A stretch of DNA of 63,966 bases, filler included, from Sluysia triapertura (Eukaryota): NCBI GenBank assembly GCA_046118255.1. It is 5 parts of 5 records of this genome, joined end to end, with 100 filler letters (N's around TTAATTAATTAA, not from the genome) between each part and the next. Parts side by side here need not be neighbours in the genome. Positions count along the whole stretch, not along the records: positions 12,065 to 30,058 come from JBJNIA010183390.1; 4 more parts are not named here. One strand, given 5' to 3'. The stretch's first letter is position 1. Each line of letters begins with the position of its first letter. The translations under genes and the position numbers were made by a program. Shown in pieces: positions 1-53,111 of the stretch. The notes under the pieces were generated by a model that worked only from the letters and a program-made list of their open reading frames with translations, searched no databases and had not been told where the DNA came from.

Positions 1-465
1 ATTATAATTTAACTAATTGTATTTAGTTATTGCAAAATTTTGATTTATAACTGTTTGATAATTTATTTTATATTTTTACATATGTTTATTAATAAATTAT
101 TTAATCCTTATTTAATATTGATTTCCATAATTTTAAAATTTTCAAAAAATCTATCGAGATAAAAGCTTTTATACACTAGAAATTAACTCTAGTAAGAAAA
201 ATCTTTTTAACCGATCCCATATAACGGGATTTACGCAAAATTATTATTTTAAGCTTCTGCATTTAATATATAATTAAACTAATTTGAATTTTTAAAATAT
301 TCACCTCCAGATTTAAGGTGTTAAATAAAATCATTATTTAACAGTTAAGTATCTATTCTCGCATTAAAATCTAACGGCTGGCCCTCGCTGGTAAGTCCAT
401 TACGTTGGTGAACTAACGTAAGTTAATAAATCTTTATTCTATAAACTCCACAGTTCTCTCACAAT
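1..465 (-). repeat. Structured interspersed repeat, copy 1 (homologous to 11630-11964 and 19879-20309)
   Basis: Reverse complement reads ...AGTTCACCAACGTAATGGACTTACCAGCGAGGGCCAGCCGTTAG...CTGGAGGT...ATCCCGTTATATGGGAT...ACTAGAGTTAATTTCTAGT, collinear with the other two copies. Confidence 0.9.
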
Positions 466-5560: not shown

Positions 5561-7929
5561 ATATTGTCGGGAACAAATAATTTATTTCAATTTTAAACAG
5601 GATTTTAAGATTGTGTAAGTTTGATAAGTTCTCGTGCATTCTAAATCTTACTTAAGTAAGATTGATCGAGTTTATTTTTGTTGAACTTGCGGTAACTGAA
5701 TATGATTGTTGAACAAATAATTTCACTGGAACTATGAAGATTATCTTTCGTTTATTATCAACTTCTTTCTTTAGACAATTTTAATAAAATTTTATGTTAA
5801 TTGTTGAATAATCACGAAATATGTCTTAAATGTTTTCTATGTAACTCCTTTCAATCGAATTATACGTTTTTAGATTTTTAACCAAAACTTCTGGTTATAT
5901 TATTCTGTAAAGTTTACTTTTTATAATCAGTTATGATTAACCAAAATTACGGCGCACGCGATAGCGCTTTTCTCGTTTTGTATCGATAATGCGAAGATGC
6001 TGCTGTTGGTAAAAAAGGAGTCGTGGAATTTGTGCAGCAAAACATTTTTGTAATAAGTGAAAATAAAAAATATTTTGTTGATCAAAATTACTTGTTACAT
6101 AACAATTAGTGTTAATTATAACCTTTCCCCCCAAAAAAAAATACCACTCATTTCATCCTGGACTTTTAGCATATACATAAGAAAATTATTCCGCACTCAA
6201 ACGGTTAATGAATGACAATAAAACAGTACTGAATTTATAATATAAAAATTATTAATCAACAGAATAATTAAAAAATTTACAAAGATTATTAATTTAAAAA
6301 ATTTAATAATTATTATTTAAAATATTTATTTAAATTATTTAAAATATTTACAAAAGTCATTAATTTTCAAAATTATTAATTGCATTTTAACATTTAAAAA
6401 TCTTTAAGATCCTAAACAATGTCTTTGTTAATATCTTTGGTTTTATAAATAATTTTTTGTATAGATGTTTTATCTGCTACCTGAGTGTAAATATACTATT
6501 TTATTTGAGTTTTAGTTAGTTATGTGGTCGAGGTTTTCAAAAATGTAGTACTAAGAACTATGCGACACAATCTTGAGATGTCTACCAGAGTTTATGCTGA
6601 GAGGACAATTGCCTCCTAGAATCGACGTCGTTGACATTAATTTGTATACTATTTCCGGATCATAAATATTTGTCTCGGGGATAAGTGGTTCTTTTTACGC
6701 ATGTATTGATGAAAATGAAAAAATGTTGACAAATAATTAGTGCAAGTGTTGATATTTATTCATAAATAAAGAATTAAGCAATAAATAGAACTGAATATAA
6801 TCAATGGAATATAAACAAAAGAAAAGTTTATTAAGTTATGATTAATTATTATAATAGTTAAAGAAACATTAGATTTACTTATAACTATTATGATTGATTG
6901 ATGGCACTTTGGGCGCTTAAGTAAAATACACAGAGACTTAAGGTCCTTACGAAAGTGGATATTAATTTTGCAAACGTCATACTGTTATTATTATTGTACT
7001 TTACTGACCTTAAACTAAAATTATAAGACATCGCCGGGTTATTACGTTTACGTAGAACGTAAGAGGAACAGAATTTTTTAATTTATGATCTGAGAATGTT
7101 TAAAGTTACGTATGTTTAGCCTCAATTTATTCCTTCCTGACAAATGTCTTTTGTAGAACACCGCATAATATAATTTTATAACAGTATATGTTTATTTATT
7201 TTTCATGGCATCGTGTTGTTTTTCTGAACTAAAATGAGTAAAAGAACAATATTTCCGCTATAAAATTTCCAGATTTTTTTATTATAAAATTATTTTGATA
7301 CAATGAATTTATAATAAATTCTACAAAAAAGAAATAACGGTATTAATTTAAAATTTTATTATTTTTAGTCAATAAAATAAAAAGTGATAAACTTTTGTTA
7401 ATCTATTGAAATAAAATCTTTTGTGTGAATTTCTTTTGTATGCTTTCCATAAAATATTCACCACGTAATAATTATTACTATATTTTAATGTAATAGTCCA
7501 AATTTCTAATTAAATTGTAAATTAATTTTATTTAAATTAATTTTTATGAAATATCTTGAAAACGTTATTTCTATGTCAGAAATATTTAATGATATTTAAC
7601 CACTTTTGAGTAGTTATTAAATTAATTTATTATTATTATTATTATTATTATAAAGCAAAATATAAATCTAAAAAATAATATCAAAGATATAAAAGATAAT
7701 AAAAGAATAAATATATTACTGTGGTTGATATTGCATTAATTATTATTATAAAACATAATAGTGGAATTTATCAGTTTTTTAAAACTATTTAAATTAATTG
7801 CAAGTGGATAAATGAATGTCCAAAGAAATAATCAGTTGCTTAGAATCGAACTATTAAAGATTTAAATTCAATTATAAAAAACAAAGTGTTACGAACGTCA
7901 TATTATTAATTAATAATATAGAATCAATG

Positions 7930-8095
7930 ATCTAATTATAAACATATTACAATCAATTTTAAATGTGATGTAATTGTCAACTATCGAAATGTTTTAATCG
8001 TGATGCAATTGTCAAATATGAAAAGTTATAAATGTGACACAATCAAAAATTAAATATCAATTATAAATGTAATACGATTGGCAAATATTAAATAT
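7930..8095. repeat. Degenerate ~35-bp tandem repeat
   Basis: About four copies of AATTATAAATGTGATGCAATTGTCAAATAT-like units. Confidence 0.6.
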
Positions 8096-8562
8096 TATTT
8101 AACTAATATTTACGAAGATTTTATTTATAAGTTATCTCAGTAAAAAGTTTTACGAATTAATTAGTGACGTTGAGTATAATTTTAAATTTTTCGTTAAAGT
8201 AAAATTTGCTTAAAATTTATATAAACTAACAAATGAAAACAGTTTAATGCCGAATAATAAATGATAGTATTTGTTTTTTCTAATAATGGTTCAAAAATAA
8301 TGGTACCACAAATGATTAAATATATTTAATAAGCATCTATAAGAGCTCAAATTTTTTGAGGCTACTCTTTTGTGATACTTAAATCTTTTAAATTAATGAT
8401 TATCATTTGTAGTACTTAATTGTGTAGTCATACTATTTGTACTTATAACTGATGAATGCTGATGAATTATGCTACTATACATTTTATAATTTCTAGATAC
8501 TTTGACTAATATTGACACTAAATAATAAAACTTTTAAATGTTTTACTTTGATAATAATAATA

Positions 8563-8630
<68 letters not shown>

Positions 8631-8938
8631 TTGTTTATTGATTTATGTGTGACAATAAAGAAACAGCATTTTGGATATAAGATTATAAAATTATAAAATA
8701 ATATTATTTAATATATTCGAAATATTTGAATATCCGGTCACTCAAATGAAACCAATTTAGTACTTATTTTTGTTATTTTCGCTGTTAATAAGTTATAATA
8801 TTAACTTTAATAATAATAATTATTATTATTATTTTCTCGAGAGCACTTCACTCTTAATTTGATAAAGTGATAAATAATCATTAGAGATATTCAAATAAGT
8901 TTTAAAATTGTTGTTTAATAATGATTTATTATTGTTAC

Positions 8939-8990
<52 letters not shown>

Positions 8991-9399: not shown

Positions 9400-9810
9400 A
9401 CATATATGTATTTATATTATTTATTTCAATCTTTTCCAAGTATCCAATATTGCATCTTTTAACTCAGACATATTGAGAGTAATTGAAGCCATAAGTTTTC
9501 TATCAGATTGAGATTAAGGGATCTTTCTGGCCTCTCTAACACTTTTGATCCATCTTCACTGAACGTATTAAGTGTAGTTTTAGATCGATAACAAGGAGCG
9601 TTATCTTGCTGAAAGATGACATTGATATTTCCTGGACGTTTGACATACGGAATTACTACTTCTTTTATCCAATCATAGTACTTATCACCATTAAGAGTTG
9701 ATGGAACCACACGTAAGTCTAGCTTTTTATCATAAATTATGGCACCCATACCATAAGTGATCCTCCGCCACAAATTATCTTAGAAAATATTTCCCTTGAA
9801 TCCTCTAGAT
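9400..9810 (-). mobile_element. Tc1/mariner transposase fragment (DDE core)
   Basis: GGGSLMVWG-like motif (frameshifted), IFQQDNAPCY, RSLNLNLIENLW; truncated upstream by a hAT MITE. Confidence 0.9.
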
Positions 9811-11629: not shown

Positions 11630-11964
11630 TAATTGTGTGAAAGGTGAGTAAAGTAAATGGAATAAAATGAGTTTAAAATGAGTTCACCAACGTACTGGGC
11701 TTACCAGTTAGGGCCAGCCGTTGGATTTGGTGTATAAAGTTTCAATAAATATAATAATGGAGCCTTAATGTTTAATCCTACCTGGAGGTAAACTTTGCTA
11801 ACATCTGCTAAGATTGTCAAATGTAAGTAGATCTGAAATATTTAAAGGAATTTCTCGAGAACTGTAACTATTAAAAATAAATCACACTTTTTCGTAGATT
11901 CCGTTATATGGAATCAATAAAATATATTTTACTTCCTAGAATTAAATTCTAGTCTTTAGAAAAC
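11630..11964 (+). repeat. Structured interspersed repeat, copy 2 (truncated by gap)
   Basis: AGTTCACCAACGTACTGGGCTTACCAGTTAGGGCCAGCCGTTGG, CTGGAGGT, GATTCCGTTATATGGAATC, CTAGAATTAAATTCTAG. Confidence 0.9.
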
Positions 11965-12064
11965 NNNNNNNNNNNNNNNNNNNNNNNNNNNNNNNNNNNN
12001 NNNNNNNNTTAATTAATTAANNNNNNNNNNNNNNNNNNNNNNNNNNNNNNNNNNNNNNNNNNNN
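11965..12064. other. Artificial contig linker N44-TTAATTAATTAA-N44 (also 30059-30158, 41282-41381, 52993-53092)
   Basis: Four identical 100-bp gaps, each centred on a palindromic six-frame stop 12-mer. Confidence 0.97.
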
Positions 12065-12099
12065 ATAATTGAATATATTGAAAATGAAATTGTTAGACG

Positions 12100-12156
12100 G
12101 GGCTGATAGCTCAGTGGTAGAGCATTCGCACTGCGCATCGATCCCCGGTCAGTCCA
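12100..12156 (+). pseudogene. tRNA-Cys-derived pseudogene with internal deletion
   Basis: GGGCTGA/TCAGTCC acceptor stem, D-arm TAGCTCAGTGGTAGAGC, Cys-like TTCG..CTGC..ATCG anticodon region; variable arm and 5' half of T-arm missing. Confidence 0.75.
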
Positions 12157-12179
12157 TTTTACGAAGTCTAACAAAATGA

Positions 12180-13305
12180 TGGTTGATAATATGTTTTGTA
12201 CCTAATAGAGTTTGGCAAACCGTACCATGTAGTTTCAAAGTTGTAATTGTCGGTCTGATTCTCAAAGAGGTTTGGATGATTTGTGTGAGAGAATGTTTGG
12301 TTGTGAGATTGTGAATTGATTTGATGATGAGAGAGAATAATATAAAGATTTCAAAATTTTTACATTACAATAACAAAATAACAACAATGACAATGATGAT
12401 GATAGATATGAAAATCAATACTTAGGGTAAAGTTTTTAATTTTTATTTATTATTTTATTAAAATAATAAAGTTATTTCAATTTGAATAATTTTAATATTG
12501 TGTCATTTTTAGCTAATTTTTTAAACTATTTTTAAGGTGAGTTGATAAGAAACTCCCTATTCAATTTTTGTAAAAATATTATTTTCAAGATAATTAATTG
12601 AAAACCATTTCATGTAATTTTTGTTGAATATTACATTTAAATTGTATTTGATTTTCATTTTAAGGAGGATTGATAAGAGACTCCCTACGCAATTTTTGTT
12701 AAGACTATATTTGATTTTTAGCTATTTTTAAGATAATTAATTGAGAGACATTTCGCATAATTTTTGTTGAAGATCACATTTAAATCATATTTTATTTTCG
12801 GTTATTTTTAATGTGAATTGATTAGAAACTCCCTACGCAATTTTTTCTATCAAAATATTAAGTATTTTAACTCTAGAAATTACTGTTAAGTTGTTCTTTA
12901 AAGTTATTATTACCAAGAATTTTATTGTAGTCGTAATAAAAAAAATATTTAAATAAAATAATTACTATTAATTTTCTAGATATTTATATTGTTAGTGTCT
13001 GTTGCGTCACTCCTGGTTGTTTTGTCATAATTAGATTGTAATATAATTGATTTTTTTGTTATTTTAGTTGTTTTCAGTATTTAGTAAAGATTCTTATTGA
13101 TGATAAATTATATTACGATTTTTTGTACATCATTGTCTTAGTTTTGATTTGATTTTCAAGAACTTAAATTTGGTGTAATAGTTATTAATATTATAAAAGA
13201 ATATTACTGCCGAAATATATTCGATATACTGACTATTTAAATTATTGAGGTTCCTTTAAGCTAATCAAGTTAATATTGAGTCATAATAGCTAATAATTTT
13301 AAAGT
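12180..13305 (+). repeat. Interspersed repeat homologous to ~22700-23402, probably part of the Polinton-like family
   Basis: Shared blocks GTACCATGTA..TGTCGG..ATTCTCAA..GATTTGTGTGA.AGAATGTTT, GTTGCGTCACT.CTGGTT and TTAAATTATTGAG.TTC.TTTAAGCTAAT..TAGCTAATAATTT in the same order. Confidence 0.8.
12530..12845. repeat. Tandem array of five ~55-75 bp units, alternating two subtypes
   Basis: Type A TTGATAAGAAACTCCCTACGCAATTTTTG at ~12542, 12670, 12818; type B GATAATTAATTGA.A..CATTTC...TAATTTTTGTTGAA at ~12589, 12732. Confidence 0.85.
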
Positions 13306-13375
13306 CGCTACATCTATATAAACTAAAATTATATTTAAAATTTGTCTTGTTTTCTGGTTATACCGTTTTGCATAT

Positions 13376-14269
13376 TCACGGATGATTAATTTCATTCTCT
13401 ATCATAGAATCGTCTGGAACTTCAGTAAAACTATCATTTGTAATGTTGCTGGCATTGATAATTAAATTTTGCAAACTAAGTTCGATTCCTAATTTTGATA
13501 AAATGGATTGATTCCTGAGACATTGATCAGCAAGTCAAGCTGGATAACCAGGAACATCGATTGTGTGGCAGTATAAGCAATTTTTTCCATGGTTGAAACA
13601 TTAACCAGTTTGAGTGGATGTATGCGGGCGGAGAGCCATCTGTAGAGTTTTGTTACCATTATAGAACGACTTGAAATAGTCATCTTCTGAATTATCCTTT
13701 GGTAATGTTGTCTCTAATGATTTTTCTTTATTAGTCATGACTAATGAATTGACATCTACTATATTTGTAATAACTAATTTGTGAAATGTTAAAATTATAT
13801 TAATAGAAATTTCTATAATTTTATCTTCCTTTGTCATTATATAATTCAAAACACGAGCATGAATAGAACTAAATCGTTTAAACTTAGGTACATGAAACAG
13901 TGCAGTCAAATTTCTCGTAATAATATTTTTTACACCTAGCTTATATACTAATTTGCAAGTATTAACATGAAAAGGTACTAATTTCTTAATAGGTAATGCT
14001 TTTAATTCGCTTTTTGAACATTGACGATATCTTATGTTCAGTGATGACATTAAATAACAGAGAATATTACAATCAATACCAGTTAAATGAGTACTCATTA
14101 AATTATACGTTATAATTTTGAATAGACATTTTTTATAATGCTCATTATTGATATCAAATTTCGTTTGGATAAAATTCATTATATCTTTTAACAAAGCAGA
14201 ATAACAATTTCTTTTAATAAATATTTCATTCAAAAATTCGTTGAATTCATCTTTCAAAATTTTCTCCAT
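13376..14269 (-). pseudogene. Intronless ORF of unknown function (222 aa open) continuing in frame past two stops into a CxxHxxxCxxC zinc finger; likely virus/Polinton-like accessory gene
   Basis: ORF track 13601-14269; same frame after TAA reads CFNHGKNCLYCHTIDVPGYPA*LADQCLRNQSILSKLG...INHP*; lies just downstream of the conserved promoter-like motif at 14445-14552. Confidence 0.55.
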
Positions 14270-14444
14270 CGCATAATTATTACTAAATGAGTAGTGAATA
14301 TTTATTTTGTCAACCAGATAAATTTTTTTGGATAAACAAAGTTACTGAATTTCAGGTTTAATTGATTTAATAATTTGGTGAAACATAATTCGTTAAATTA
14401 ATACTACCAACAATTAAAATGTAAATGATGAAATAACATTGTGA

Positions 14445-14552
14445 TGCTAGTGTTTTCTTAAACTTAAACTTATTCACTGAAAATTATCTGATGAGTCGGT
14501 TCGCCTAATATATACGCTTTATACCAAAAATGGAGACGTATTATTAGGATTT
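14445..14552 (-). promoter_or_regulatory. Conserved promoter-like motif, left arm of inverted repeat
   Basis: Minus strand CCTAATAATACGTCTCC..TTGGTATAAAGCGTATATATTAGGCGAACCGACTCATCAG; TATA-like and TCAG initiator-like words; inverted copy at 15567-15665 and third copy at 51246-51352. Confidence 0.55.
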
Positions 14553-15058
14553 AATATAATTCCTTAATTAGTGCTTAACCTAACACTCTTACTTACAAAC
14601 AGTTAAAATTGTAAAGTAAATATTTTAAAAAAGTGTTTTTATGTGTAAACAGTGTTTTTGTATTTATGTGTTGTTAATATTATTATTATTATAATTATAC
14701 TTAAATAAAAAATATAAAATTCAAAATTAAATAGAATTATTTTAATTAAAAAATTAATTTGTTTTAATATAGTAAAATATAAATAATAAAGAAAATGTTT
14801 AAATTAATTCTGGATCTATTATTAGTAACAAAGAAAAAATTATAATTATTTTAAGAAAATATTAATTTATTATTACACCAGTATAAATAGAAGGATAAAA
14901 CAAGTAAAAAATCAGAATTGGAATTAGAATTAAAATTGATAGTTAAATTGATCAAAGTTTTAGAAAAGTGATATTCTGAGGTCATTTGGATCCAGACTTA
15001 ATATTTGATTTTTCAATGTCAAAAAACTTCAAGTAATTTTTTATTGCATAAGTTTTAT

Positions 15059-15485
15059 AATATCACCTTAATAGGGATATTTAAAATATACGTAAAATCA
15101 AAGATAAATTTTTCATCAACACCTTAACGAAAGGGTTGAGTAATCTTGATTTAAAATTTGATATTTAATCAACGCTGTTGAATTATTTAATTTCCATATT
15201 GATATTATACAATTGTTTTGTAAGGATTTAGTCGATTTGTTAACTTTTATAAATAGATTATTAGAGAGTTTAACAGACTTGTGTTTTTTGTGAAAAATAA
15301 ATCGTTAATAGAACATTAAACTACTCGTATTTAACTAAATAAAACGATAAAATACTTTTCTGTAACAACACCTTAATCTAAAGAAGGGTTGTGTAAAATC
15401 ATAAAATAACATTTTACATACAACATCTCATTAAGAGAGTTGTGCAATCTATTTTTATTTAACAACACCTTAATAAAAGGGTTGT
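15059..15485 (+). repeat. Array of five bulged-A hairpins
   Basis: AATATC-A-CCT-TAAT-AGG-GATATT (15059), TCAAC-A-CCTT-AACGA-AAGG-GTTGA (15116), ACAAC-A-CCTT-AATCTAAAG-AAGG-GTTGT (15365), ACAAC-A-TCTC-ATTAA-GAGA-GTTGT (15420), ACAAC-A-CCTT-AATAA-AAGG-GTTGT (15462). Confidence 0.9.
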
Positions 15486-15566
15486 GAAACATAACTAAAA
15501 TCTAACGACTTAGATAGTCAATTTGAGTTTTATTTAGTTGGACTTTAAGTTAAGTCTTAAAATTAC

Positions 15567-15665
15567 AAAACCTAATAATACGTCTCCAAGTTTGGTATAA
15601 AGCGTATATATTAGGCGGATCAACCTATCGGATAATTTGTTAAGTATAAGAAAATACTAGCAATG
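15567..15665 (+). promoter_or_regulatory. Conserved promoter-like motif, right arm of inverted repeat
   Basis: AAAACCTAATAATACGTCTCCAAGTTTGGTATAAAGCGTATATATTAGGCGGA..ATCGGATAATTT..TAAGAAAATACTAGCA, reverse complement of 14445-14552 with few substitutions and one indel. Confidence 0.55.
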
Positions 15666-18017
15666 ATTACTAAATTTAAATTGTCAGAAATAATATTTGT
15701 TTTCAAAACATTTCTTATATCTTTTATGGTAAAAGTAATATGTGATGTATTAAGTACGATAATTTTATTAAGACATCTCTACATAAATGCGCCTTACGTT
15801 TATCAGCGAGTTTTGTGCAAAACAATAATGATTCGGTAGGACTTTGTGAACATACACAGGTTAATAGCACTTGAGCACGCTTTGATCTTATCAAAATTCA
15901 AAAATTATTTTATTATTATTATTATTATTAATTATATTGATAATATCAAACCAAACTTAATTTCACTTCATCATCTCTTCTAATATCTGAACCAATAACA
16001 GCATTTTCATGCATCCAAGCTTTCAAAACTTTTAATTTATTCTTCTAACATTAACCTTATATAAAGGATCTGGTCAGCAAAAACAGATGCTTGCTGCATC
16101 ACTTCTTCAAATTTCTTCATAGACAAAATAAAACTTGAAAAATAAAAACGATACTAACGTAACATGAATTTCTCACACCAGTAATATTTTTACAATCAAT
16201 AATATAGCAAGATGTTCTCTACCACAAATTTCTTTGCCTTTACCAGTGTACATATCAAACACCATTAATTATAAATTTCAGTGTGTGGTCTAATCAGTCA
16301 AGTAGAGAAATATACAAGAATAGGTCAACAAAAATATATTTCAGAACTCAGACGAATATATTACAGTAGTGTGTTTAATGAAATGAATTAATGCTGATAG
16401 AATATGAGATGCAATATAATCAAAAAGGAAAAAGAATATATCTTCCATAAGTTATGTTCCATAATAAATGAGTCATTCTGCAGTTTTGTTTAATTAAGGA
16501 AAATATGTATAAGTTTACTGTTTCTAATATTTTATATATTTTTGTTTAATTCTTGAATCTCTAATGTCTCGTTTAATTTGGAACAATAGTTATATTTATA
16601 TTGTGACTTTAATTTTATTTGGGAACTTATACTTATGAAATTCTGAACTTTAATAAATGTAATTAACTTACAAATAAAATTAGATAAGTATAATCATTTT
16701 TATAATTATATTACAGAATGCCAAATTAATGAAATTGTTAGATCTAATTCATACACCCCAATTACAAAAAATTAATAACAATGATTATTATTTTTATTTA
16801 TTACGAATTTTATTATAGATAATGTGAATCATAATTTGTGAAAAAAATTATTCTTTTACTCTGAACAAATTTTAACAAATATGTGGATGTATTTGAAAAT
16901 ATTTTCGAAAATATAAGAAATACTATCTTTAACATTAACAGTAAGATCATATAATTTTTTAGTTCATTAATTCATAGAATAAAAACTAAATAAAAATTAA
17001 GGAGACAATAATGTTCATCCTGAAAAATATGCAATAGGAATTGTAAAAAATACCATATCGAAGTATAGAGGGACTGAGCACGATTTTAACAATGGCTATT
17101 AAAAAATAATTTTACAAATGCATACCTTATATGAAAGACTTAGCAGACAACAAATTCATAAGATATACTTTCATCTCGCATAATTAAGTGTTTCATATTT
17201 TTCAATACATTACTTATGTATAATCTAGAATAAAATTATTAAAATTTGAAAAATGATACATTTATTTAACAAAAACACTAATATATTAGACGTGTGAATA
17301 ATACATATAGATCTGAATGCAACATCGCAAGATTTAAAACTCAAAATTAATGATTTTAAAGAGGCACGATAATCAGTAACAAAATTAATAATAAATTTTA
17401 GCCAAAATTTAAGGTGTTGCTTGTGTTTTATGCATATTGTTTGATGATTTGATATTTTTGAGATTGTATTGAAGTTTACAAGGCATATCATAGTTTGTGT
17501 TCATATTTGTTTACGACTGTGTATGATTAGTGTTTTAGTCTTGAGTTCACTATTGTGTGCCTTTCCTTAGGATATGACATGTAGTAGAGACGAACTCGAC
17601 GATTAAACGTTGCCTTGCTAAGAGTTAGAAATAAAAAACATACTCGCAAAATTGGGACCAGATATTGAATTATTATTAAGAATAAAATATTGAACATACA
17701 ATTTCGACGTAAATTGTTACATATTAAGCATTAATATATTTTTACATTTAAAACAGCACATAAATCAAAAACTTTGCTAAGTTGTTTAGTCTAATAAGCA
17801 ATAGGAGTTAAGTTCTGTTAATTAAAATAGATTTTTAAAAATTCGCTTGGCACCATCAAAAATCCTGTTAACATAACCGCTAAATATCCATAAAACAAAA
17901 CATTATAAACGTAAAAAGTTGTCATAAATGTGTTTTCGAAATTAGTAATACTAAATTTTAGTTCAAAATATTTATTATAAACCAATATCATATCAAATCA
18001 AAAACAGAAAAAATTGT

Positions 18018-18716
18018 TCACTTAATAGATTTTGCAATCAAAGACTGTATAAGTTTTCGAATTTGTTCTCTTTTTTCATTAGAGTTAACTTTATAGTTTT
18101 TAATAATATCTTTCATTTGAGGGATAGAATATTTTCCACTTAAAATGAGATTAATTATTTTTTCTGCTAATATTATGCAATACATTCCACAATCACTTGA
18201 ATTATTCTGTATTTCACAATCAAGAAGTTCAATGATAGTATTTTTAGCTTTTAAAATACAGCCTAATTTATGTGCAACATTATCAGCTTCCCTTCTAAAA
18301 TGAAATAAAACAAATTAAAATTACTTGTTAGCATAACTAGGCCCTAAGGAATCTAAATAAAAACTTGTGACAACATGACTAGATAGATAAAGGATCAGTA
18401 AAAACCAGTGAATACCACCAGCTCTTTCAACAGTATCGTCACTATTTACTGGCAAAATAATCCACCCAGTTTCTTTAACCGTTACAGATTCCAAAAATGC
18501 AGCTTCTTCTAAATCTTTTGGTGATAAAAATTTGATCAATTGAACTGACGAAGGATTACCTAAGAATATATTTTTATTAGTCAAATGGTAATGGTCAGTT
18601 AAGTATTCCATATAAAAGTGTATAACACTATCAGTAATCCATCCACCTTTAATAAGGCTATTATAATCACATTGACGCATTACTGAATCTTTGTAGCTCA
18701 AAATTATGTCACTCAT
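18018..18716 (-). CDS. SENP8: Sentrin-specific protease 8 / NEDD8-specific protease (exons 18325-18716 and 18018-18294; 222 aa)
   Basis: MSDIILSYKDS, WITDSVIHFYMEYL, GGIHW (His), YLDS (Asp), and after splicing the GT..AG intron 18295-18324, QNNSSDCGMY (Cys); frame open to TGA at 18018-18020. Confidence 0.93.
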
Positions 18717-19878
18717 AAAATCAATTTTTTCCTTAACCTAAGATATATTTCGATGAAGGTTAGAGGTTAGAAATATAACTTTATAAATCAAATCTGTCTT
18801 CATACCAGATATTAACAAAAAACTTAAGATAATACAAAAGTAATTTATTTTTATCAAATTTAAAATGGAATTATTTTGCATAAAAAGGTAATTAATTGAT
18901 TTACACTTTTCAATTTCATAATTTAAATCTTTGTAGTCAAAAGTTATATTTGCGTATTATATTTTTTAATTATTAAAAGCATTTCATTTTATTTAAAATT
19001 GTTCCCATCTTTACTTATTAAAGTGGAAATCATTTATAAAAAGTTACAGTTTATGTACTTATTTCTAAAATGTATCTTATAATTAATGTTTTCACAAAAA
19101 ATTTTAAAACAATTTTTATTAAATTGCTGAAGTATTTTTTTATTTGACTTGTAGTTAAATTATTTAAATTTGTTTTATTTTATTCTTTCAGATTATGTAG
19201 GAATATTTAGGACTTATTTAGTTATACATGCTTTTGAAATTTTTTAATTACATTTATAATTACGGAATGGAAAATGCAATCGGAATCAAAAATTAGGAAT
19301 AAGATTTTTTAATCTTACACTGTGGTTTAATGTACAGTGAAATTACCTGAGTAATGCACCACCTTTATATGAATTTTGAATCTTTTATTAAAATGAATCA
19401 ATTATCTGTGCTAGTTTTCATTTTAAAGCAAAGTTTTCTTAATTTAACTTAATAAATCTTAAATAATTTTTGGTGAATACTTTCATTGCATACAAGTAAG
19501 TTAATAAACGTGTTCATGTTTTTTCGTCACTGTGTGATTAATTTAATTGCAAGCCATAAATATAATGAAACAAGAAGCAAACTTAAAAGACATCAGACAA
19601 TGCTGGATGACATCGTTTTACGATAAAATGCTGGTTTCTTTGCATCCAGGTATTATCATTAAGACGTTTCAAATACCATAAGGAAGGATGAGAGGCATTG
19701 TAAATCTTACATGTACTAGTGCTGCCTTATTTGACTCACCTGACCCAATAGCAAAAATAAAAAAGTACTTAAGCTCCTTTGTTCATTTTCGCCTCGTGCC
19801 TCATGCAGCCATTATGATCTATGCTATGTTTTTATATTAAAACTTTTGCAAAAATATTTTGGTGGTGCTTTTTATAAC

Positions 19879-20309
19879 GTGAGAAAAGTGTAGAATAAAG
19901 AGTTAATTAAAATTTGCGTGAGTTCACCAACGTACTGGGCTTATCGGCGAGGGCCAGCCGTTGGATTTTAATCGTAAGAAAAGATGCTTAACTCGAGTTA
20001 TAAAAGTTCTTAACACTTAAGTTCTGGAGGTAAATGTCTTTTAGATAATTAATTAAATATCAATTATAATAAATTTAAATGAGAATATTACGTAAATTCC
20101 GTTACATGGAATCGAATAAAATATAGTTTACCTACTAGACTTAACTTCTAGTATGTGAAATCTTTGAAATAGATTGATTTTATGATTTTAAAGCTATAGC
20201 AAAAAATTGAAACAAGTTTAAGTTTTATTATAACAATGATTGTAGATAAGAAATTAATAATAAAAATAATAAAGTTACAATAAACTAAATATAATTAGTT
20301 TAAATATAA
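19879..20309 (+). repeat. Structured interspersed repeat, copy 3
   Basis: AGTTCACCAACGTACTGGGCTTATCGGCGAGGGCCAGCCGTTGG, CTGGAGGT, ATTCCGTTACATGGAAT, ACTAGACTTAACTTCTAGT; 3' part matches reverse complement of positions 1-150. Confidence 0.9.
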
Positions 20310-22429
20310 AGAGATTTTTAAAATAATATTTTGTCTGAGATCGTTATACGATCCAAATAAAAATTCATAAATTTAAGTAAATTTTACTATTGATATTCTA
20401 CAAATATCTGATCTTAATAAAAATCAAGCTAACGTGATCCAATAAAATGATTCAAATGTCTGTGTTGAAATAGAAATTGTCTTCTTTAAAATTAATAATT
20501 AGACCTTGAAGTCAGATTAAAACAAAAGGATATATTTCGATAAAACAAAAATTTAGTAAAATAAAAATTTTTAATTAAAATAACTGGTTCTCATTAGCTT
20601 AATAATTTAATTCAAAAATAATTTTAATAAAAATTTAATTTAAAATAATTTAATTTAATAATCTCAATAAAAATTAAAAACATACTTTCCAATTTATAAA
20701 TTAATATTTCCAATAATTTGTAAATTAATAATTAATAAAATTAACACAAATAATAGTAAAAATTAATAGAATATTCACACAATCATAAATTGTTAGTCAT
20801 AGTAAAAATCAATAATTAATTCACATAAACACAATCATAAATTGTTAATCATGATAAATTGTTAGTGTTAGTCATCATTACAATAGATTAAAGCTCCGAT
20901 AAGGTTTAATCTATTACCCTTCAATATATCGGGAACTTAAAAATGTTACAAATAATTAGAAATTTAAGTATATTTTAAAATTTCAACTTCTAAAGTTGAA
21001 ATTGACCCTCTAAATATATAATTTACCAATGAATATTTTCCAATTTTTTGAATTGCTGCGAATTTCGAACCGTTACTAAAATCTCACAATTCATCAAACA
21101 AATCAAATTAAAAGGATATTTCAAAATGGCGATGTTAAAATGGCGATTTTCATTAAACGGATGCTAGTTTATATAGTAGTCATCAGCACGTAGGAAAGAA
21201 TGATGAATAATAATAATATTAATAATAAATAAACTCATCTTGTTTGACCTAGAATTTAAAAATTAAATTTTTAAATATTAATAATCACCTCACTTGACAT
21301 GTGAATATATTTTTCTTCACATGTAATAATAAAATAATTATTGACTAATCATTATTTATTCTTGGTATAAAAAAGTCGTCGCAAGAAATTGAGGACACAA
21401 GTGAAAAGCAATATGTTGTTTGTAGTTAAAATGAGCTTAGCAATCGTTTTTTGGCAATAAAAATCTGTTCGTTTCAGAAATCTTGGCAAATCAAATCAGT
21501 TGGTAATATAAATCTTCACTGATATTTAATCCGCTTGCTGGAAAAGTTCAAGAATTATGTATAATACAATTTGGTGGAATTCTAATTAGATTTAATTCCA
21601 GTGTCACCTGAACAAAGAATTTTATTTGATTTGCGGTTGAAAATTTTGAAACCATCAGTAAGCTTTTTATGTTAAGTTTAATTTCGGTTAGGAGATATAA
21701 AAATAACATAAAATCATTTTTAAACTCTTATTTTCATTTTAGAAATATTTTCTATTATTATTTTTATTATTATTTGGAATAAACTGTAATACACATTTAT
21801 TTTCATTCTTTATTAATATATATTGTAGTTTTGTCTTTATTTAGTTAATTTCTTAAAGTAATTATCAAGTTAACGGATCTAAGTTTAATCGAATATTTGA
21901 ACATAATATTTTAGTTGATCTATAGAATCTGTAAGTAATATTAAAGTAATTACTAAGTTAAAGAAGCCAAATATTTTATTTGATTTTTAGAATATATAAA
22001 GTAATGACAAATAACTAGACAAAAATAAACATAAATTCACTTATATTACGTCTTTTTAATAAAATAAAAATAAAAATTAAAATTATGGAAGTAAATCTTT
22101 TAGGAATTACATATGAGAGAGTTCTTTTCCAGAATTAAGCACTGTACTAAGCAAGAGATTAACTTTTAACTTTTATAGGTAATTAATATAAGAAAGTTAG
22201 AATATACGTTATTTGTCAGAAAAAACTCTCAGAAGTTTTCTAAGTACAATAGACTACAGATTCATAGTTTTTGTTATTAATTACAAGAAAAGAGTACATA
22301 TTCGCATATACTTTAATTACAAGAAAAGCTTTTTAAGTCTATGTGCTGTTACTTACGAGTACGTCTCCTTAGGATTAAAGCGTACATCGCAAGTGGACAT
22401 TTAGAATTAAAAATCAAAGTATAAGAAAA

Positions 22430-23770
22430 AACATAGCAAAGTGAATATGAAATGATTGCTATGGAAGAAGAGAATCTAGAAGTGAGTTTGAAATGTTTGC
22501 GGAGTGGTTTGTTTGAGAGCTTAAACATTTTCCATAAGAAAATTGGGTGTGGATAACCAAAAATCAATTAAATTCTGAAAACTAAAATTAAATTCACTAT
22601 TTTGTATGTATGTTAACAATAATAATGATTATTATATTAATGCGAAAATTAATTTAAGTAAAAGTAGATTGAGTAGAGTAAAGGAAAATAATAGATAATC
22701 GTAAATCAATTTTTCGTGTTTTGTATTTAATAAAGTTTGACAGTCTGTACCATGTAACTGTCGGATTAATTCTCAAGGAATGTTGCACTGATTTGTGTGA
22801 CAGAATGTTTAATCAAAAAATTTGGGAATAATTGGATGATGAGAAAATTTAAAAAGGAATACCAAAAAAATTTTACATCACAACAATAACACAACAGAGT
22901 CAGCAACGATTAATAATGCAAATGAGAAGATCCATGCTTTAACTAATTTTTGAATTTATTTTATAATTAAAAATAATATTATTTTGGGGAGATTTCATTT
23001 AAATAGTTTTTGTTTTTTGAAAATTTTATTTGATTATTATTAAGAAATAAACGTGAATAATAATTAACATTTTTCTTAGTGTTTGTTGCGTCACTTCTGG
23101 TTTCTTTAGATATACTGTTATGTTCTTAGAAATATTATAAACATTATTCTTAATCTTGTTATTTAGTCATTTTTAGTATTGTTTAGTGGAGATTTATAAT
23201 AATAATTTGTATTTGATTTTTGTTTAACCAGTAAATTATTTTGTTTTTATTAATTTGATTTTTAAAAACTTAATAATCATTATTATCAGAATAAGAGAAT
23301 TACTGAAAATTTATACTTGATATAATGAGCACTTAAATTATTGAGATTCTTTTTAAGCTAATTACATTGATATTGATTTATCGTAGCTAATAATTTCTAA
23401 AGACGAAACAAATACTTCAAAAAATACAAGATAAAAGTTTTACGATTCAAGAGATCTGGTTAAATAATTCTTCGTTCCTTCGTCATTATTGGTTTATATT
23501 AACATAATCATTCGTCACGATTCAATATTTTCTGAGTGGAATTTAGCTAATTAATTCTTAGTCATTCATAAAAAATTTGAACAGTATGTCGAAGTTGTGT
23601 TTGCTTTAAAAAGAAACATATAGTTTGAATGGGTTTATGAAAAGAAAGCCAAATTTTAATCAATTCTCAATTTTACAACGTTAAAATTTTCAAATTTAGA
23701 TTGATGAAAAGATAATGAATTGCATATGAAATGACTACCACGAAAGAGGAGAATCTAGAAATGAATATCA
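22430..23770 (+). mobile_element. Decayed fragments of the Polinton-like family
   Basis: GAATATGAAATGATTGCTATGGAAGAAGAGAATC (~22443) and GCATATGAAATGACTACCACGAAAGAGGAGAATC (~23722) match the minus-strand segment 50741-50783 upstream of PolB; 22700-23402 matches 12180-13305. Confidence 0.5.
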
Positions 23771-23948
23771 ATAAAATGAAATATCAATAAATGTGATGTG
23801 TCAAAAACCAAAATCATATAAACAAATATACAAACAATCATTCATTTAAAATTCTTATAACACTAACAAAACTGAACCAACCACTCATGACTACATTCTC
23901 ACATAATGATGCACTCTTTAGCAGTTTCCTTTGAACTAACTTCTAAAG

Positions 23949-33881: not shown

Positions 33882-39086
<5,205 letters not shown>

Positions 39087-40506: not shown

Positions 40507-40978
40507 TTACACAATCGAATAACTAGTTGCCATACAAATCTTTTTCCGTAAAATTTTCGAAGCTGGCTGTAATTTAAGAGATTTAAGAAGATTTTCTATA
40601 CATTCTTGTAATTTGATATGACTTTGTTCCAATAATTCTAATCTGTGATGAAGGTAATTCTGCTCTATACGCATATCGGTTACTGTTTCATAAATACTGG
40701 ATTGGGTTTTCGCCAGATCAACAAGAGTATCTGAATTGTACTGAAGTTTGCGTTGTTCACTTTTTACTTTTCTCATACCATAAATTGCTCGTAAAAACTT
40801 TCTCTGGTGGACTCGAACTTGCATGGGATTGATTCGTTTTACTAATTTAGAATACTTATGAATAAGACACGCCTCACGCAGTACATTAGCTGCATAATTT
40901 TTGAGCTGTTTAATTAACTGATTCTCGAACATGAAATGAATAACGTGTTTTTTAGCTCGAGATAGTTCAAATTTTCAT
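40507..40978 (-). pseudogene. Terminal exon of a small-conductance Ca-activated K+ channel (SK/KCNN calmodulin-binding domain), probably inactivated
   Basis: [68 protein letters not shown]; TGA (40975-40977) where the conserved Arg of RKLEL is expected, right after the CAG acceptor; no upstream exons seen. Confidence 0.8.
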
Positions 40979-41900: not shown

Positions 41901-42666
41901 GAGAACAAAATATTTTCATTACATTTTTAATAAATGTCTTAGTGAAAGCATGACGAACGAATCATCTGAGAAGATTCGATCACATATTTTTATAAATTAT
42001 TCAACACAAACCTTGCAGGATGTACATTATACACTGCGCCAATCAACAATAAATTCCAATAATGCTACGAGAAATAAGAACCATCAGTAAATTTTCTAAA
42101 TAAGATTGAAGAATTTCAGCAAATTTATTCATGTTATTCAAGATCAAAAACAAACGAATGTTAATCATTTTAATGCTACGTATTTAGGTACCTAATTTAT
42201 TAAATAATGTGCTTATTAGAAATTTTGTGGTTTTAATGAAACTTTATTTAAATTTATCATATTTTTATATTTTATTAACTTATCTAATGTCAAATAAGAA
42301 TGCAGAATACAACCGCAGTACTTCATAAATGTGTGAATTAATGTAACCAATGAATAAACAACGTCATCTCGAGGAAAGTTTCCAACTCTTAAGAGTTATA
42401 GCATTATTTCTACATGCCAGCTTTTATTAGGTGTGCGAGGCTTTTAATCTTATAGCGTGCAAAAGATAATTCTGGAAGCGAGTCCACCTAACGGAAACGT
42501 TTTATATCTGGTCGAAGGTGGTATATTAAGCTTTTAAGAAGTAATATAATTCTACTTTAAGAGAGTCATGTATTTAATTATGTGAATGGCTACGTTAACA
42601 GTACTCAATAGTTTTGATGCTAATACGTCAAAAATTATTTAATTATTTATAATTTATCAGATTTTG

Positions 42667-42786
42667 AGTTAGCCTTTTTACGGTCTAACTTTCAATAAAA
42701 AATATTTTAAATTAGCATTTACGGTCTAATTATGCAAACTTTCTTTTACATTTTATGATATTTAGCTAGCCTTATTACGGTCTAGC
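42667..42786 (-). repeat. Array of three bulged-A hairpins
   Basis: Minus strand AGTTAG-A-CCGT-AAA-AAGG-CTAACT (42667-42690), AATTAG-A-CCGTAAATG-CTAATT (42710-42731), GCTAG-A-CCGT-AAT-AAGG-CTAGC (42765-42786). Confidence 0.85.
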
Positions 42787-43565
42787 GAGGATAAATGATA
42801 TTTTAGTATTTAATAAACAATTACAAACTCTCAGACCAAGAAGAAATTTTGTACAAAGTGTAAATATAACAATACAATAATGATAATCAGTTTAGCACTT
42901 AAATCTTATTGATCTAGTGCAATAAAGTTTATATAGAAGTTAAATTAGCCAGTTAACTTAGACCACGTGAAAATAAATTTAATATTTTAAGTAGATTTTA
43001 ATTTTCCTAGTTATGGTGAGAATATAAAACTTATTAAACAAAATCTTACTTTAGCATGGTACATGGAAAATATTTGACTGGATTTTTCTATGATGATTTT
43101 TGATATTGTTTCGCTCTATGGTTTGTTGAAAATTTTCTCATTCTTATATACAAAATTTTCAATCGCCACATTGCTTTATTGTCTTATATTTTGAAAAATA
43201 ATCCATTTAAATACATTTTTTTAATTTAACAATTTAATTTAATTTATTAAACTTAATTGATTTAATTTATTAAAGTTTCTTTTATAAATAAAATTTATTA
43301 AATTTATTTATTTATTTTGTTATATTTGTTAGGCATAATAAAGATAAATAATTTAATACCAATAATAAAATAAATATAATAATAAAACCAATAAAATAAA
43401 TGTAAATATGTTAATGATGGATCATAAACGTGTTAATGTTAAATTTACAAGTACAATCTCGCAAGTGCATACAAACAAAAGAATAAAAGAAGATGACTTG
43501 TAAAAATAACAGAAATCACAATAACAATAATATAATTATTATATATTTTAATGCGATGATGTTAA

Positions 43566-48479: not shown

Positions 48480-50400
48480 TTGCTTGATTTGATCTGCAGA
48501 ATAAATTGTACCATTTCATAGTTAGTTTCTTTCATAGTGACTCATTTGGACTTATTTTATTGAGTAGTACTAGATAATAAAGAATAGTATTAGAGCCTCA
48601 AAAATATCTATTCAATATTTTTTAAAACCTAGCTATTTATATCTTGAAATTTAGTACTATACATTGGATGATTTGTATCATGATTTGACATATCCAATAA
48701 TTTCATTTAATAAAGTATCTAAATTAAGATTAGTGCATTTTAAAGAGAAAGCATCAGTATAACCCGTCATAATGTCAATCTCACAATTAAATTGATGATA
48801 ATAATTTTCTAATTCTTCATATTGTAATTTGGTCTATATAACTATTTCTCTTCCTAGTAAAGCTATTATTAAAGTATCAGCAACTTTAATTGAATTTTAA
48901 AACTGACTTTACATAATTAAGTTGTTAGCGGTGTGATAAAATCTTACATTAGTATATTGTTTTAAATTATCTACAGTTTCATCGTAAGGAAAATTGATTT
49001 TAAAGTTTTAAATGATTTTGAATTATAATCAATATATTTTTTAAAAATACAAGTTTAATTAAATTTAACTGTTCTATGAATTTTACAAACCGTTGTTCCT
49101 AATTTCATGTGCATTTGTAAGATACGCCAATAATAATAGTGCATTATGAGTTAATATCAATGTTTTAACTCTAGAATTTTGTGAACTTTTATAATCAAGA
49201 GCAAAAGGTAAGTCATCTAACTCATCGTATACATGAATTGGAATAATCAAGTTAGCCTATTTCACTATTTGCAGTATCTGTATTTGGTAAATTTAAAATT
49301 TATTTATTTAATTTGTTTACATCATAAATCTATTCGAAGTCATTATTTATGTACAATAAACTAGTTTTATTATCAGCTCGTGCACCTCGTACATCATTTT
49401 CAAAAAACTAAACATATCATAATAAGTTCAAACCATTAATTCATCATCTTCCTTTGATTTAAGTGCCAAAGTCGAACTTAAACCGGGTAATGACAAAAAG
49501 TTGACTAGATTTAAATAATCTTCATTTATTGCTGTTTTCCTAAATTCTTCAAAAATATCAATCAATAAATGTGTCTAATTTTAAGTAGACCATCATGCAA
49601 TCAACTAAATTATCACATTTTAAATGCATTGTTATAATGGTCAACATTTTGGTGGCATTTATTTAAAATTCTTCAGTATAGAGAGTGAATTATCGAAAAA
49701 TGCCTTTTGATTTTACTAACTATTTAGATATCGTGCTAGATATATTTTCTAAATTATCAAAACTTATCACTAAAATGGTCATGATCTGTAACAAGTTTAT
49801 CTGCTGGTTTTCATACATGTAACAAGATTTTGCATTATAAACTGGAGTTGTTATCTGCATAACTATAATGTCCGTTTTTGGGCTTATTAATAGTAAACCT
49901 ACATCTAATGGTTCATGTCTTTGTTGACATTTTTAGTTTGATAGTAATACAGATTCAAAATCTTTGAAAATAACAAATGTGATAAGTAAATTCACATTTG
50001 TTATAAATTGGTGTAGTATATATAATATATATCTCTTTCAAGATTTTTACTCATAACTTAGTATACTTATTAAATGAGATCTTTCCTAAATCCTCTTAAC
50101 CACGACCTTGATTGCTACTAATGGAACGTATAAATTACTAATTGTTTCACTATTGAACTTATTTATATATAATATATGAGTAAATGGATTTTTAAAATAT
50201 CGTCATTATCACGGATATCATATTCATCATTATCATTATTTAGTCGTTAAAATTTAGATATATTAAATATAGTCATGGAGAATTCATCCATAAAATCTAC
50301 AAAATCATATTTCAAAATTGATAATATAAAAAATATAAATTATCATTATTCTGAACATTAATAACATTATGAGCATATATAATTTTGATTCTGAAAATGC
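48480..50400 (-). pseudogene. Heavily decayed protein-primed family B DNA polymerase of Polinton/Maverick (adintovirus-like) type
   Basis: Minus-strand fragments in canonical order: VINVQNNDNLYFLY (~50325-50366), FVIFKDFESVLL (Exo I, ~49942-49977), LVTDHDH, KSKGIF, VYLKLD..LIDIFEEFRKTA, FLSLPGLS, DELDDLPFA, ILQMHMKLG..CKIHRTVKF..IFKKYIDYN, LLDMSNHDTNHPMYS; many stops, frameshifts and deletions. Confidence 0.85.
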
Positions 50401-51245: not shown

Positions 51246-51352
51246 GTGCAAGTGTTTTATCTAAAAGGCTTAACAAGTTACAAAATAACTGAGGGTCGAT
51301 TCGCCTATTATAAACTGTTTATACCAATTCTGAGTCGTGTTATTAGGATTTA
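51246..51352 (-). promoter_or_regulatory. Third copy of the promoter-like motif, pointing toward the PolB remnant
   Basis: Minus strand AAATCCTAATAACACGACTCAGAATTGGTATAAACAGTTTATAATAGGCGAATCGACCCTCAGTT; TATAAA about 33 nt before the A of TCAGT. Confidence 0.55.
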
Positions 51353-51487
51353 AATTTATCAAAAAACTAAACTAAAATTTAGTGTATTAACACTTGATAA
51401 CTAGTTTTTATTCAGTGATGCTGAGACTTAAGCTTAATAATTCGTAAGAACTTTATATTTAATTATTTGATATTTTAATCAAATGAC

Positions 51488-51604
51488 ACTAACTTTCTTA
51501 AGGTCTAGTTCCATAAAAATTATAAATAACACAAGCCTTCTTAAGGTCTTGTACAAAAATACTTCAAAGATTTTAATTAATTACTGTAGCCTTCTTAAGG
51601 TCCA
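51488..51604 (-). repeat. Array of three bulged-A hairpins
   Basis: Minus strand ACTAG-A-CCTT-AAG-AAAG-TTAGT (51488-51509), ACAAG-A-CCTT-AAG-AAGG-CTTGT (51531-51552), TGG-A-CCTT-AAG-AAGG-CTA (51587-51604). Confidence 0.85.
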
Positions 51605-53111
51605 GATCGAAAACTAATATAATGATTTTAGAAATTACACTAGCCCTAATAAGAAAATTAAACAAATTTTCTGTAAAATAAAGAACATTTTTTAAAATTA
51701 TTATTATTTTAAAATTTAATAAAAATATTTATTTTAAATTTCATTAAAAATATTTAGATTAATTTTGAAATCTATTAAACTTTATTTTTAGGTTAAAATT
51801 AAAAATTTAAAAATATTTAAATTAAAATTCTATTAATTTATCTTATTTCGCTAATATAATAAAAATAATTATTTTATAAAATTACAAAATTTACAAAATA
51901 CAAAAAATACAAAACAAAATTAAGGCTTCAAGTCTACTTAAAGGTCGATAATGTCTTAAGTTATCTAAGGTTAAAATCTACAGAGGCACCTTCATGCTTC
52001 TAAAGATTTTCCAAACCCATATGAAGCTTCCACAAGGTCTCAATATCCTCTATGATCTTTGGAACCCTAGATATTCCACAATTGTCGACATTTTTATAGA
52101 TATTTTTATAATGTTTATAATGTTTTATCTATCATACTTCGTATCAAATTTTCATTCATTTTATAGTTCTGTATATTTCTCACTCATTTCCTAATCCCAA
52201 CGGTCCTATGTTCTTAACCGATTTTAATGCCATATCGTATTAAATGGGTTCTGTATCTTATCTTAGAAATTATATTTCAGAGCAAATTCGTTTTAAATGA
52301 ATCATAAATTTTATATAACTTTATAGAATTAAAACATTTTGTCTATTGATTTATCTATGAATTAATACTACTATAAATAAATTTTCGAAATATTATTTTT
52401 ATACTTTTATTTTAGTTCAACCACGATTTTGAAGTTTTCCCAAAAAATTTAGTATAAAAATAATAATTAAAAACCAAAATAAGTCTCATTCGAGTTAATG
52501 TTAATATTTTAATGTATACCACTTTTGTATGGCTCTATTGTAACTAACAATTAAATAGTTTTATCAGTAATAATAATTATAATAATTTTATTTTAATTTT
52601 TTTATATTGAAACAAAATAAAAGTTGTAATAATTAATAAATAATTAATACTATTAATCATATAGATCATTTTAATAGTTCAATTGATGAAACTATACATA
52701 ATAATAAACAACAATTATTATATTTTACAAATTGAAATATTAAATTTAAAAAAATAACGAATCAATTTACGCTAATTTTCTTCTTTTTGTACATTACATA
52801 ATTAAGAATTTATTTATTGTTTTTTAATGTAGAAATTTATCTAGAGAAAACAACAACAACAATAACAATAACAAAAATAATAATAATAATAATAATAATA
52901 ACAAAAATGTTTTATTATGCTTTTATTTTACGTTATATAATAATTATCTTTCAAAAATAAATTGCCTTCGAGTAACTTATGTAACTAGATATNNNNNNNN
53001 NNNNNNNNNNNNNNNNNNNNNNNNNNNNNNNNNNNNTTAATTAATTAANNNNNNNNNNNNNNNNNNNNNNNNNNNNNNNNNNNNNNNNNNNNAGTACACA
53101 CTATATCATAT

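Follow-up and report, generated by a model that had tools for sequence, protein, structure and literature searches.

MITEs and foldback elements are non-autonomous DNA transposons that carry terminal inverted repeats (TIRs), lack coding capacity and reach high copy number; a MITE in the strict sense is also short and uniform in size across its family. The locus described here, positions 14446-15661 of the window (the whole 63,966-nt stretch of DNA that was analysed), resembles these elements in its TIRs, its lack of coding capacity, its high repetition, its sharp ends, its subterminal units of variable number and its variable middle. It differs from them in that bulged-hairpin units are clear inside one arm only, in its outward-facing TATA-like words and in its link to a viral polymerase. 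We propose, at a probability of roughly 0.6, that the locus is one copy of a non-autonomous cut-and-paste DNA transposon of the MITE/foldback type.

Several other transposon groups share single features with the locus, as far as the available excerpts of their descriptions go. Pangu, a group of PHIS DNA transposons of arthropods and other animals, makes 3-bp ANT duplications at AT-rich targets and has TIRs of 11-40 bp that usually start AG or GG (PMC4482050, in part). A possible A-W-T 3-bp duplication (GAT/AAT, one locus, 2/3 bases) in an AT-rich target would recall Pangu as excerpted there, whereas arms of ~100 bp that start GC do not, and no transposase was seen. Ginger1 and Ginger2 are described, in the part of the source at hand, as having TIRs of 40-270 bp, TGTNR termini and CCGG/CCGT or RTATAY targets (PMC2836005). 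The arms match that description in length, and their ends can be read as TG...CA with a 4-bp GTGA/ATGA flank (3/4), but the arm terminus is TGCTA and neither of the Ginger targets given there is present.

Virus-like systems form a second point of comparison, again from partial sources. Polintons (Mavericks) enclose their genes between TIRs (PMC6431247, PMC4061559). The locus has a neighbouring Polinton-type protein-primed DNA polymerase B (pPolB) and long inverted repeats, yet the open reading frames (ORFs) lie outside its arm tips, and integrase, ATPase and capsid were not detected in the window. In bidnaviruses and Drosophila Vesanto virus, the excerpted accounts place end promoters that read inward from GTGTGTGT-tipped termini (PMC4061559, PMC6521256, PMC8363768). 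These viruses have a pPolB, TATA promoters near both ends and segments with common inverted terminal repeats, an arrangement that the present one resembles; in contrast, the arm motifs point outward, the tips differ, and helicase (S3H) and capsid are absent from the Pfam-scanned frames. A sharp, high-copy insertion boundary, which would not be expected of these viruses as so described, is present at the right arm. Teratorn, a piggyBac and herpesvirus fusion of 41-182 kb with an intact transposase and internal TIRs (PMC6431247, in part), is a precedent for transposon-virus fusion, which here is only hypothetical. Among the titles and abstract openings listed by searches of open-access papers, none describes a TIR element with outward promoters tied to a pPolB; the family may already be catalogued, for instance in Repbase or Dfam.

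The features discussed below are collected in Table 1. The window has a GC content of ~23%. Its exons for an SK potassium channel, a Ulp1-family protease and an ABC transporter mark the host as an animal. Evidence on the family as a whole comes from contigs of two public runs aligned on stretches of the window. Run X1 shares 61% of sampled words with the window and may be its source sample; run X2, which carries another organism label, shares 5%. Throughout, summed contig depth should not be read as a copy number, and clip positions are aligner-dependent. The window contains four 100-nt runs of N with central TTAATTAATTAA (11965-12064, 30059-30158, 41282-41381 and 52993-53092) and further N runs at 39344-39474, 40114-40244 and 44624-44800, so the contiguity of the 42-44 kb and 48-52 kb blocks is not assured. 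A code reading TGA as tryptophan was tried for the window, and long frames did not appear.

Table 1. Features of the locus and its surroundings, in window coordinates
Feature	Position	Strand	Basis or remark
Possible target-site duplication, left copy GAT	14443..14445	+	2/3 bases match right copy
Left arm, terminal inverted repeat	14446..14552	-	Reverse-complement match to right arm; outer end ...CTAGC at 14446
AT-rich non-coding interior	14553..15364	.	Bin depths 1,849-8,957; spacer 20.5% GC
Two more hairpin units of the same type (starts 15060, 15116)	15060..15139	+	Fold, structure scan
Subterminal hairpin triplet (starts 15365, 15420, 15462)	15365..15485	+	Fold, structure scan, covariation
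Right arm, terminal inverted repeat	15567..15661	+	Reverse-complement match to left arm; contig boundary
Possible target-site duplication, right copy AAT	15662..15664	+	Fits A-W-T preference inferred from other copies' exits
222-aa ORF outside left arm, facing away	13601..14269	-	Bin depths 417-2,541
58-codon ORF from right junction	15663..15839	+	Single-copy depth; probably host flank
Decayed fourth arm	22351..22437 (about)	+	DNA resembling 23707-23764 comes directly after it
Older collinear block: spacer homology, triplet (42781, 42724, 42684), weak candidate arm	42435..43100	-	Alignment against shuffles
Decayed Polinton-type protein-primed DNA polymerase B	48995..49989	-	Natural Polinton-like polymerases, best E 1.8e-5
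Diverged third block: arm 51248-51353 and triplet (51601, 51547, 51504)	51248..51608	-	Points into pPolB
Host exon, Ulp1/C48 protease	18018..18737	-	Domain match
Host exon, ABC transporter membrane region	34120..34395	-	Domain match
Host exon, SK potassium channel calmodulin-binding domain	40507..40932	-	Domain match

The inverted repeat is real: the arms score 45 in a local comparison with each other, whereas none of 200 shuffles exceeded 17. Between 14481-14552 and 15567-15638, 63 of 72 bases (88%) match in reverse complement, for which the wording of an earlier first-pass annotation, near-exact, was generous. Beyond a 12-nt indel, which is an insertion in the left arm relative to the right, another 21 of 23 bases pair between 14445-14467 and 15640-15662. 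That annotation had drawn the arms out to about 14445 and 15665 with one indel; homology on the right stops at 15661/15662, and the homology of both arms ends at the same tip. The right-arm core is an imperfect palindrome, CCTAATA-ATACG...CGTAT-A-TATTAGG, with a fold z of -2.2 (3 of 200 shuffles are equally good). An outward reading of each arm as GGTATAAA...TATATTAGGCG...TC(A/G)G was recovered in both, and TATA-like words are retained in all three clear arms. The TCAG at 15630 is the minority state among contigs (11,730 of 92,423 depth).

When contigs were aligned on 15585-15734 (150 nt; 510 contigs of X1 and 34 of X2), summed X1 depth was 98,233 at 15655-15659, 43,513 at 15660-15664, 97 at 15665-15669 and 12.9 from 15675, and X2 depth fell from 194 to 40 to 0 over the first three of these steps. 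Among the loose-end groups listed for X1, 17 contigs leave at 15662 (agreement 0.43, median 81 nt) and 14 at 15664 (agreement 0.52, median 130 nt); the sequence beyond both points is AT-rich and unrelated between contigs. On the left side, bin depth is 107,015 at 14396-14559 and 457 in the adjacent outward bin. The sharp end with unrelated flanks is thus placed at base resolution at the right arm and in 164-nt bins at the left, where the DNA outside the arm is itself repeated (417-2,541) and so is not unique host DNA. Because depth collapses and flanks are unrelated at the right tip, the outer end of the arm is a family-wide terminus. The depth gap of 3-4 orders of magnitude implies that the arm family is very abundant, probably with thousands of copies. 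Depth collapses at the G of the ATG next to the right arm, which marks this ATG as peculiar to the locus.

This boundary bears directly on the first-pass annotation, in which the locus was a bidirectional control region and not a MITE. A static version of this idea would be a promoter region of an endogenous virus that reads both ways and never serves as the end of an element. The outward TATA-like motifs, the third copy at the 5' end of pPolB and the left arm's position before the 222-aa ORF all suit such a region, but it leaves unexplained both a more than 400-fold depth drop within five bases of the tip and the unrelated flanks, and the arms are ~40-480 times deeper than the ORF that they would drive. 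We consider it very improbable, and the right-tip contig boundary largely refutes it. The exclusion of a MITE likewise gives way, since the right arm ends sharply at 15661-15664 and passes into unrelated flanks in two runs, the outcome that the annotation itself had named as telling against it. What remains of the annotation is the tie to pPolB, seen in a third arm that lies near the extrapolated polymerase start within a collinear block.

The exits of other copies also speak to a target site. Of the 31 contigs clipped at 15662 or 15664, 14 are clipped at 15664, against the 16.7% expected with random flanks after ...CTAGCA (p 2e-4); the contigs clipped at 15662 start with TT, and no group at 15663 occurs among the X1 loose-end groups listed. 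These patterns suggest that the target is A-W-T after CTAGC, which fits both the 15662 and the 15664 clip groups. On this reading the element would be 14446-15661, with a length of 1,216 bp. At the locus itself, a single one, the GAT and AAT flanks differ by one transition, and the bases next to the three older arms read ACA, AAA and ACA, none of which fits A-N-T. With one locus, a 2/3 match and older arms that lack A-N-T, a 3-bp duplication is suggestive rather than established. The earlier statement that no target-site duplication is evident should be softened to the same degree: a decayed 3-bp GAT/AAT duplication is compatible with the sequence, although only two of its three bases match. 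An X2 contig joining 15679 to other DNA was considered as an empty site and was unconvincing.

Between the arms, no stop-to-stop frame exceeds 62 aa. At an identity of at least 80%, the interior is far less repeated than the arms, at ~1-4% of arm depth, which indicates that most family members do not have the 1.2-kb form; in this low interior depth, as in its own length, the unit departs from the small and uniform size of a strict MITE. The hairpin stretch matches the right arm in depth (208,749 at 15380-15543, and 201,179), unlike the remainder of the interior. By this depth profile the abundant unit consists of hairpins plus arm, ~300 bp, with a middle that varies between copies. Among the joints listed, two return into the hairpin array (15492 to 15461 and 15486 to 15418), and hence the number of hairpin units appears to vary between copies as well.

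In the fold of each hairpin unit, a bulged A separates a 5-bp stem from one of 3-4 bp. A structure-only scan found seven such hairpins in the window, five of them at 15060-15485 and one at 51552, while 20 shuffles gave between zero and five, scattered. The corresponding sequence motif occurs nine times in the window against 0.46 expected, with eight of the nine in three clusters. The triplet spans 97 nt in all three diverged blocks (15370-15467, 51601-51504 and 42781-42684), and its distance to the tip is 194, 256 and 249 nt in the 15-kb, 51-kb and 42-kb blocks, respectively. Stems differ between blocks in a compensated manner. Across 11 units, 84% of cells are paired (slid structures pair at 32-54%), six of nine pairs have changed on both sides, and none of 500 shuffles attains the covariation score, but these figures overstate the covariation, as the units are related and were picked with the structure known. 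An Rfam search of the whole window returned zero matches.

Taken as a transposon, the locus would be mobilized by a transposase that is encoded elsewhere and acts on it in trans. This enzyme would bind the palindromic arm core and the subterminal bulged hairpins, which are its putative binding sites, would cut at the CTAGC arm tips, and would insert the element at A-W-T sites, leaving a 3-bp duplication. The observations behind the transposon reading are the inverted arms, the high repetition in two runs, the sharp right boundary, the non-coding and variable interior, and the covarying triplet. No transposase or autonomous partner of the arm family was found. A point against the same reading is that random insertion does not predict sense-facing ORFs at three of four arms. 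On the transposon reading, the locus adds a further example to the abundant non-autonomous DNA transposons of animals and is mainly of value for repeat annotation, and its unusual feature is the structurally conserved hairpin triplet.

The arm family is not confined to the locus. A third arm (minus strand) is 80% identical over 51280-51353 to the left arm (E 1e-11 in the window) and 76% to the right, and its homology reaches 51248. The first-pass annotation had called this a lone third copy upstream of PolB; the copy is real and the polymerase is confirmed as Polinton-type, but the copy is not alone, as a decayed fourth arm and a candidate fifth exist. The fourth scores 51 against the right arm (the next of 456 windows scores 35) and 43 against the left, below two background windows. 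The candidate fifth, at ~42435-42530, has a z of 2.1 on its own and sits where collinearity predicts, the 42.6-43.1-kb block being collinear with both others (113 against a shuffled maximum of 84.5, and 83.5 against 58.5). Direct comparison of the 15.0-15.6-kb and 51.35-51.7-kb arrays gave 80 against a shuffled maximum of 79. With blocks 76-80% alike, the family is old. Searches for a partner arm of the third block at 52440-52620 gave a background score, and one at 43420-43600 was rejected. Flank homology outside different arms fell below the shuffled maximum in four of five comparisons; the remaining one scored 64 against 58.5 and was not collinear. A further 17 + 1 arm-pattern matches extend for 26 nt or less and were taken as chance. 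Arm patterns were absent from the viral contigs and one metagenome scan, and the block had no match among phage records.

The third arm gives the family its viral connection. The neighbouring pPolB gene adjoins this arm and does not lie inside 14446-15661; it contains stops and frameshifts and has lost roughly 160 codons to an internal deletion. Natural Polinton-like polymerases recognised it, and Pfam, protein, viral-contig and phage-collection searches did not. A profile of 11 polymerases gives 18.2 bits at 49571-49398 and 16.3 bits at 49186-48995, against a maximum of 2.3 for reversed-sequence decoys, and 4.2 bits (iE 0.32) at 49989-49780, at profile position 429. Extrapolated from the last of these, a weak anchor, the polymerase would start near 51,270, beside the third arm's tip at 51248, where the hairpin-plus-arm block is collinear. 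A comparison set of 12 viral-contig loci with a Polinton-type polymerase motif supplied 144 ORFs; Pfam recognised an endonuclease VII domain in one of their polymerases and an A32 ATPase in one locus. From these 144 ORFs, only pPolB matched the window at E 0.01, with no match for integrase, ATPase or capsid, genes that decay could hide.

Further traces of the polymerase locus occur at the DNA level. Positions 23404-23850 align with 51146-50650, in the 5' region of the pPolB locus, at a score of 162 (shuffled maximum 83). They are probably a paralogue of that region, abutted by the fourth arm, which lies 280 nt before an interposed different repeat that is followed by the paralogue. A pPolB-like piece at 44531-44587, a single 57-nt DNA match (E 4.5e-5), lies on the spacer side of the 42435-43100 block in the opposite orientation. 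DNA paralogues of pPolB-locus parts thus stand at 23404-23850 (+), 22428-22485 (+) and 44531-44587 (+), and on their account up to four pPolB-element remnants may lie within 64 kb; external polymerases did not confirm these paralogues. Nor did external polymerases confirm pPolB at 43440-44623, 22430-22730 or 23390-24000, and pPolB sequence left of the 42435 block was rejected. We conclude that the arm family is historically tied to a Polinton-type pPolB element, either having inserted at the polymerase 5' end and spread or having arisen from its control region.

The second of these origins shades into a dual role, in which the block would control a Polinton-like element divergently, one arm serving pPolB and the other the 222-aa gene, and the arm tips would also be recombination ends. 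An integrated virus would then have the block at its boundaries, either as a direct terminal repeat or through a transposon-virus fusion, and free copies would be solo blocks or mini-derivatives. The placement of arms argues for this: the third arm's tip lies beside the extrapolated polymerase start, the fourth precedes the interposed repeat and the 5' paralogue, a repeated ORF lies ahead of the left arm, past whose tip an ATG stands at 7 nt, and the right arm runs into an ATG and 58 codons. The TATA-like words kept in three clear arms fit as well, as does the setting of this copy between virus-like DNA and unique DNA, which is what one end of such an integrant should look like; a bulged-A hairpin array in Polinton-like loci offers a lead only. 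The same placement has weak joints, however. The polymerase-start anchor scores as low as given above, the pPolB-like fragment at the 42435-43100 block is on the wrong (spacer) side and reversed, the far side of the third block carries no homologue of the 222-aa ORF, integrase, ATPase and capsid matches from the 12 loci are absent in the window, TCAG is a minority state, and hairpin clusters occur in only 2 of the 12 loci with dissimilar sequence. We hold the dual role to be unlikely.

The hairpin lead deserves a separate description. In Polinton-like viral contigs, L003 (9730-9990) and the near-identical L005 (5019-5260) carry a non-coding tandem array of ~23-nt bulged-A hairpins, which in L003 lies downstream of an integrase-like gene (by eye) and has the architecture of the window's hairpins in other sequence. 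Hairpin clusters are thus found in two of 12 Polinton-like loci, both of one virus type, with no sequence similarity to those in the window.

A more far-reaching form of the idea is an 'inside-out' Polinton-like element, in which the arms of the 1.2-kb block would be both outward promoters (for pPolB and a second gene) and integration cut sites. The virus would be bounded by its own control block, in LTR-like fashion, and would have seeded thousands of solo blocks, and the 97-nt triplet of covarying bulged hairpins would be a single-stranded replication or packaging signal. We find this picture rather doubtful as a whole. If the arms were the promoters of a Polinton-type virus, a viral control region would have given rise to a high-copy transposon family or become fused with one, and the pPolB virus would have an integration route that differs from the TIR-enclosed Polinton layout.

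The ORFs around the arms bear on the promoter question. As the first-pass annotation had it, the left arm points toward a 222-aa ORF on the minus strand; its ATG lies 177 nt beyond the arm, the ORF is moderately repeated, and a broken continuation with a Cys/His cluster runs to about 13358. No homologue emerged among 84 word-search candidates or in Atlas, a single-sequence fold reached a pLDDT of 42, and Foldseek gave no matches at E 0.001. Two HMMER matches, to a TPR protein and a repetitive singleton, were set aside as repeat-inflated, and a candidate homologue at 52200-52840, beyond the third block, was rejected when 59 of 300 shuffles scored as well. The decayed coding-like stretch once claimed to the right of the locus comes down to the 58-codon ORF, which has single-copy depth and no Pfam match; 54 of the window's 2,195 ATGs open an equally long frame. 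Of the four scoreable arms, three point in the sense direction at an ORF that is viral in type or repeated. Judged on sequence, the arms may have originated as outward promoters of a Polinton-like element or may also act as such, and the older arm upstream of the decayed pPolB may once have been its promoter.

The true unit could also be larger and asymmetric, for example from the 12192 repeat to 15661, or could be a rolling-circle element of the Helentron/HINE kind. The right arm would then be an end and the left arm internal, and an HUH-type enzyme would recognise the hairpins in single-stranded form. In favour of such a unit, the covarying hairpins with their asymmetric bulged A fit a structure formed by single-stranded DNA, the 12192-13312 element reaches a level of repetition comparable to that of the arm (2.5-7 x 10^5), and an imperfect duplication is paired with an AT-rich target. 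Against it, the homology of the two arms ends at the same tip, depth is 110 just right of 12192-13312, and among the joints listed none with strong support leads from there to the array. HINEs, in the part of the source available, have 12-15-bp subterminal repeats, a 3' palindrome and TT targets (PMC4067079), a layout that differs from 100-bp terminal arms whose flanks start with A after the tip. A larger unit is, in our estimation, quite improbable, and the MITE/foldback reading remains the one that we prefer.

The 12192-13312 element (+) is itself a very highly repeated sequence (summed depth 2.5-7 x 10^5), with a second copy at 22717-23410 (+) and three internal repeats of 128-148 nt (12502-12859). 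Both copies start TG and can be read as ending CA, with no matching flanks seen; the element could represent a solo LTR, or else the opposite end of the arm family. Just before it, 12099-12173 (+) has a tRNA-like head, and seven X2 contigs exit at 12173 into low-agreement flanks; it is probably a tRNA-derived short repeat, for which Rfam gave no match at gathering score. A small TIR element bounded by TTAA (by eye) occupies 43560-43715, inserted beside the 42435-43440 block. The remnants at 3334-4890 (-), 9459-9779 (-) and 24333-25844 (-) are, in that order, a decayed reverse-transcriptase element, a DDE_3 (Tc1-like) transposase fragment and fragments that resemble a hAT-type transposase. Another repeat family has three copies in the window (2-441 on the minus strand, 11641-11961 and 19876-20309), with a GC-rich conserved core near 11680-11730 that seems able to fold back.
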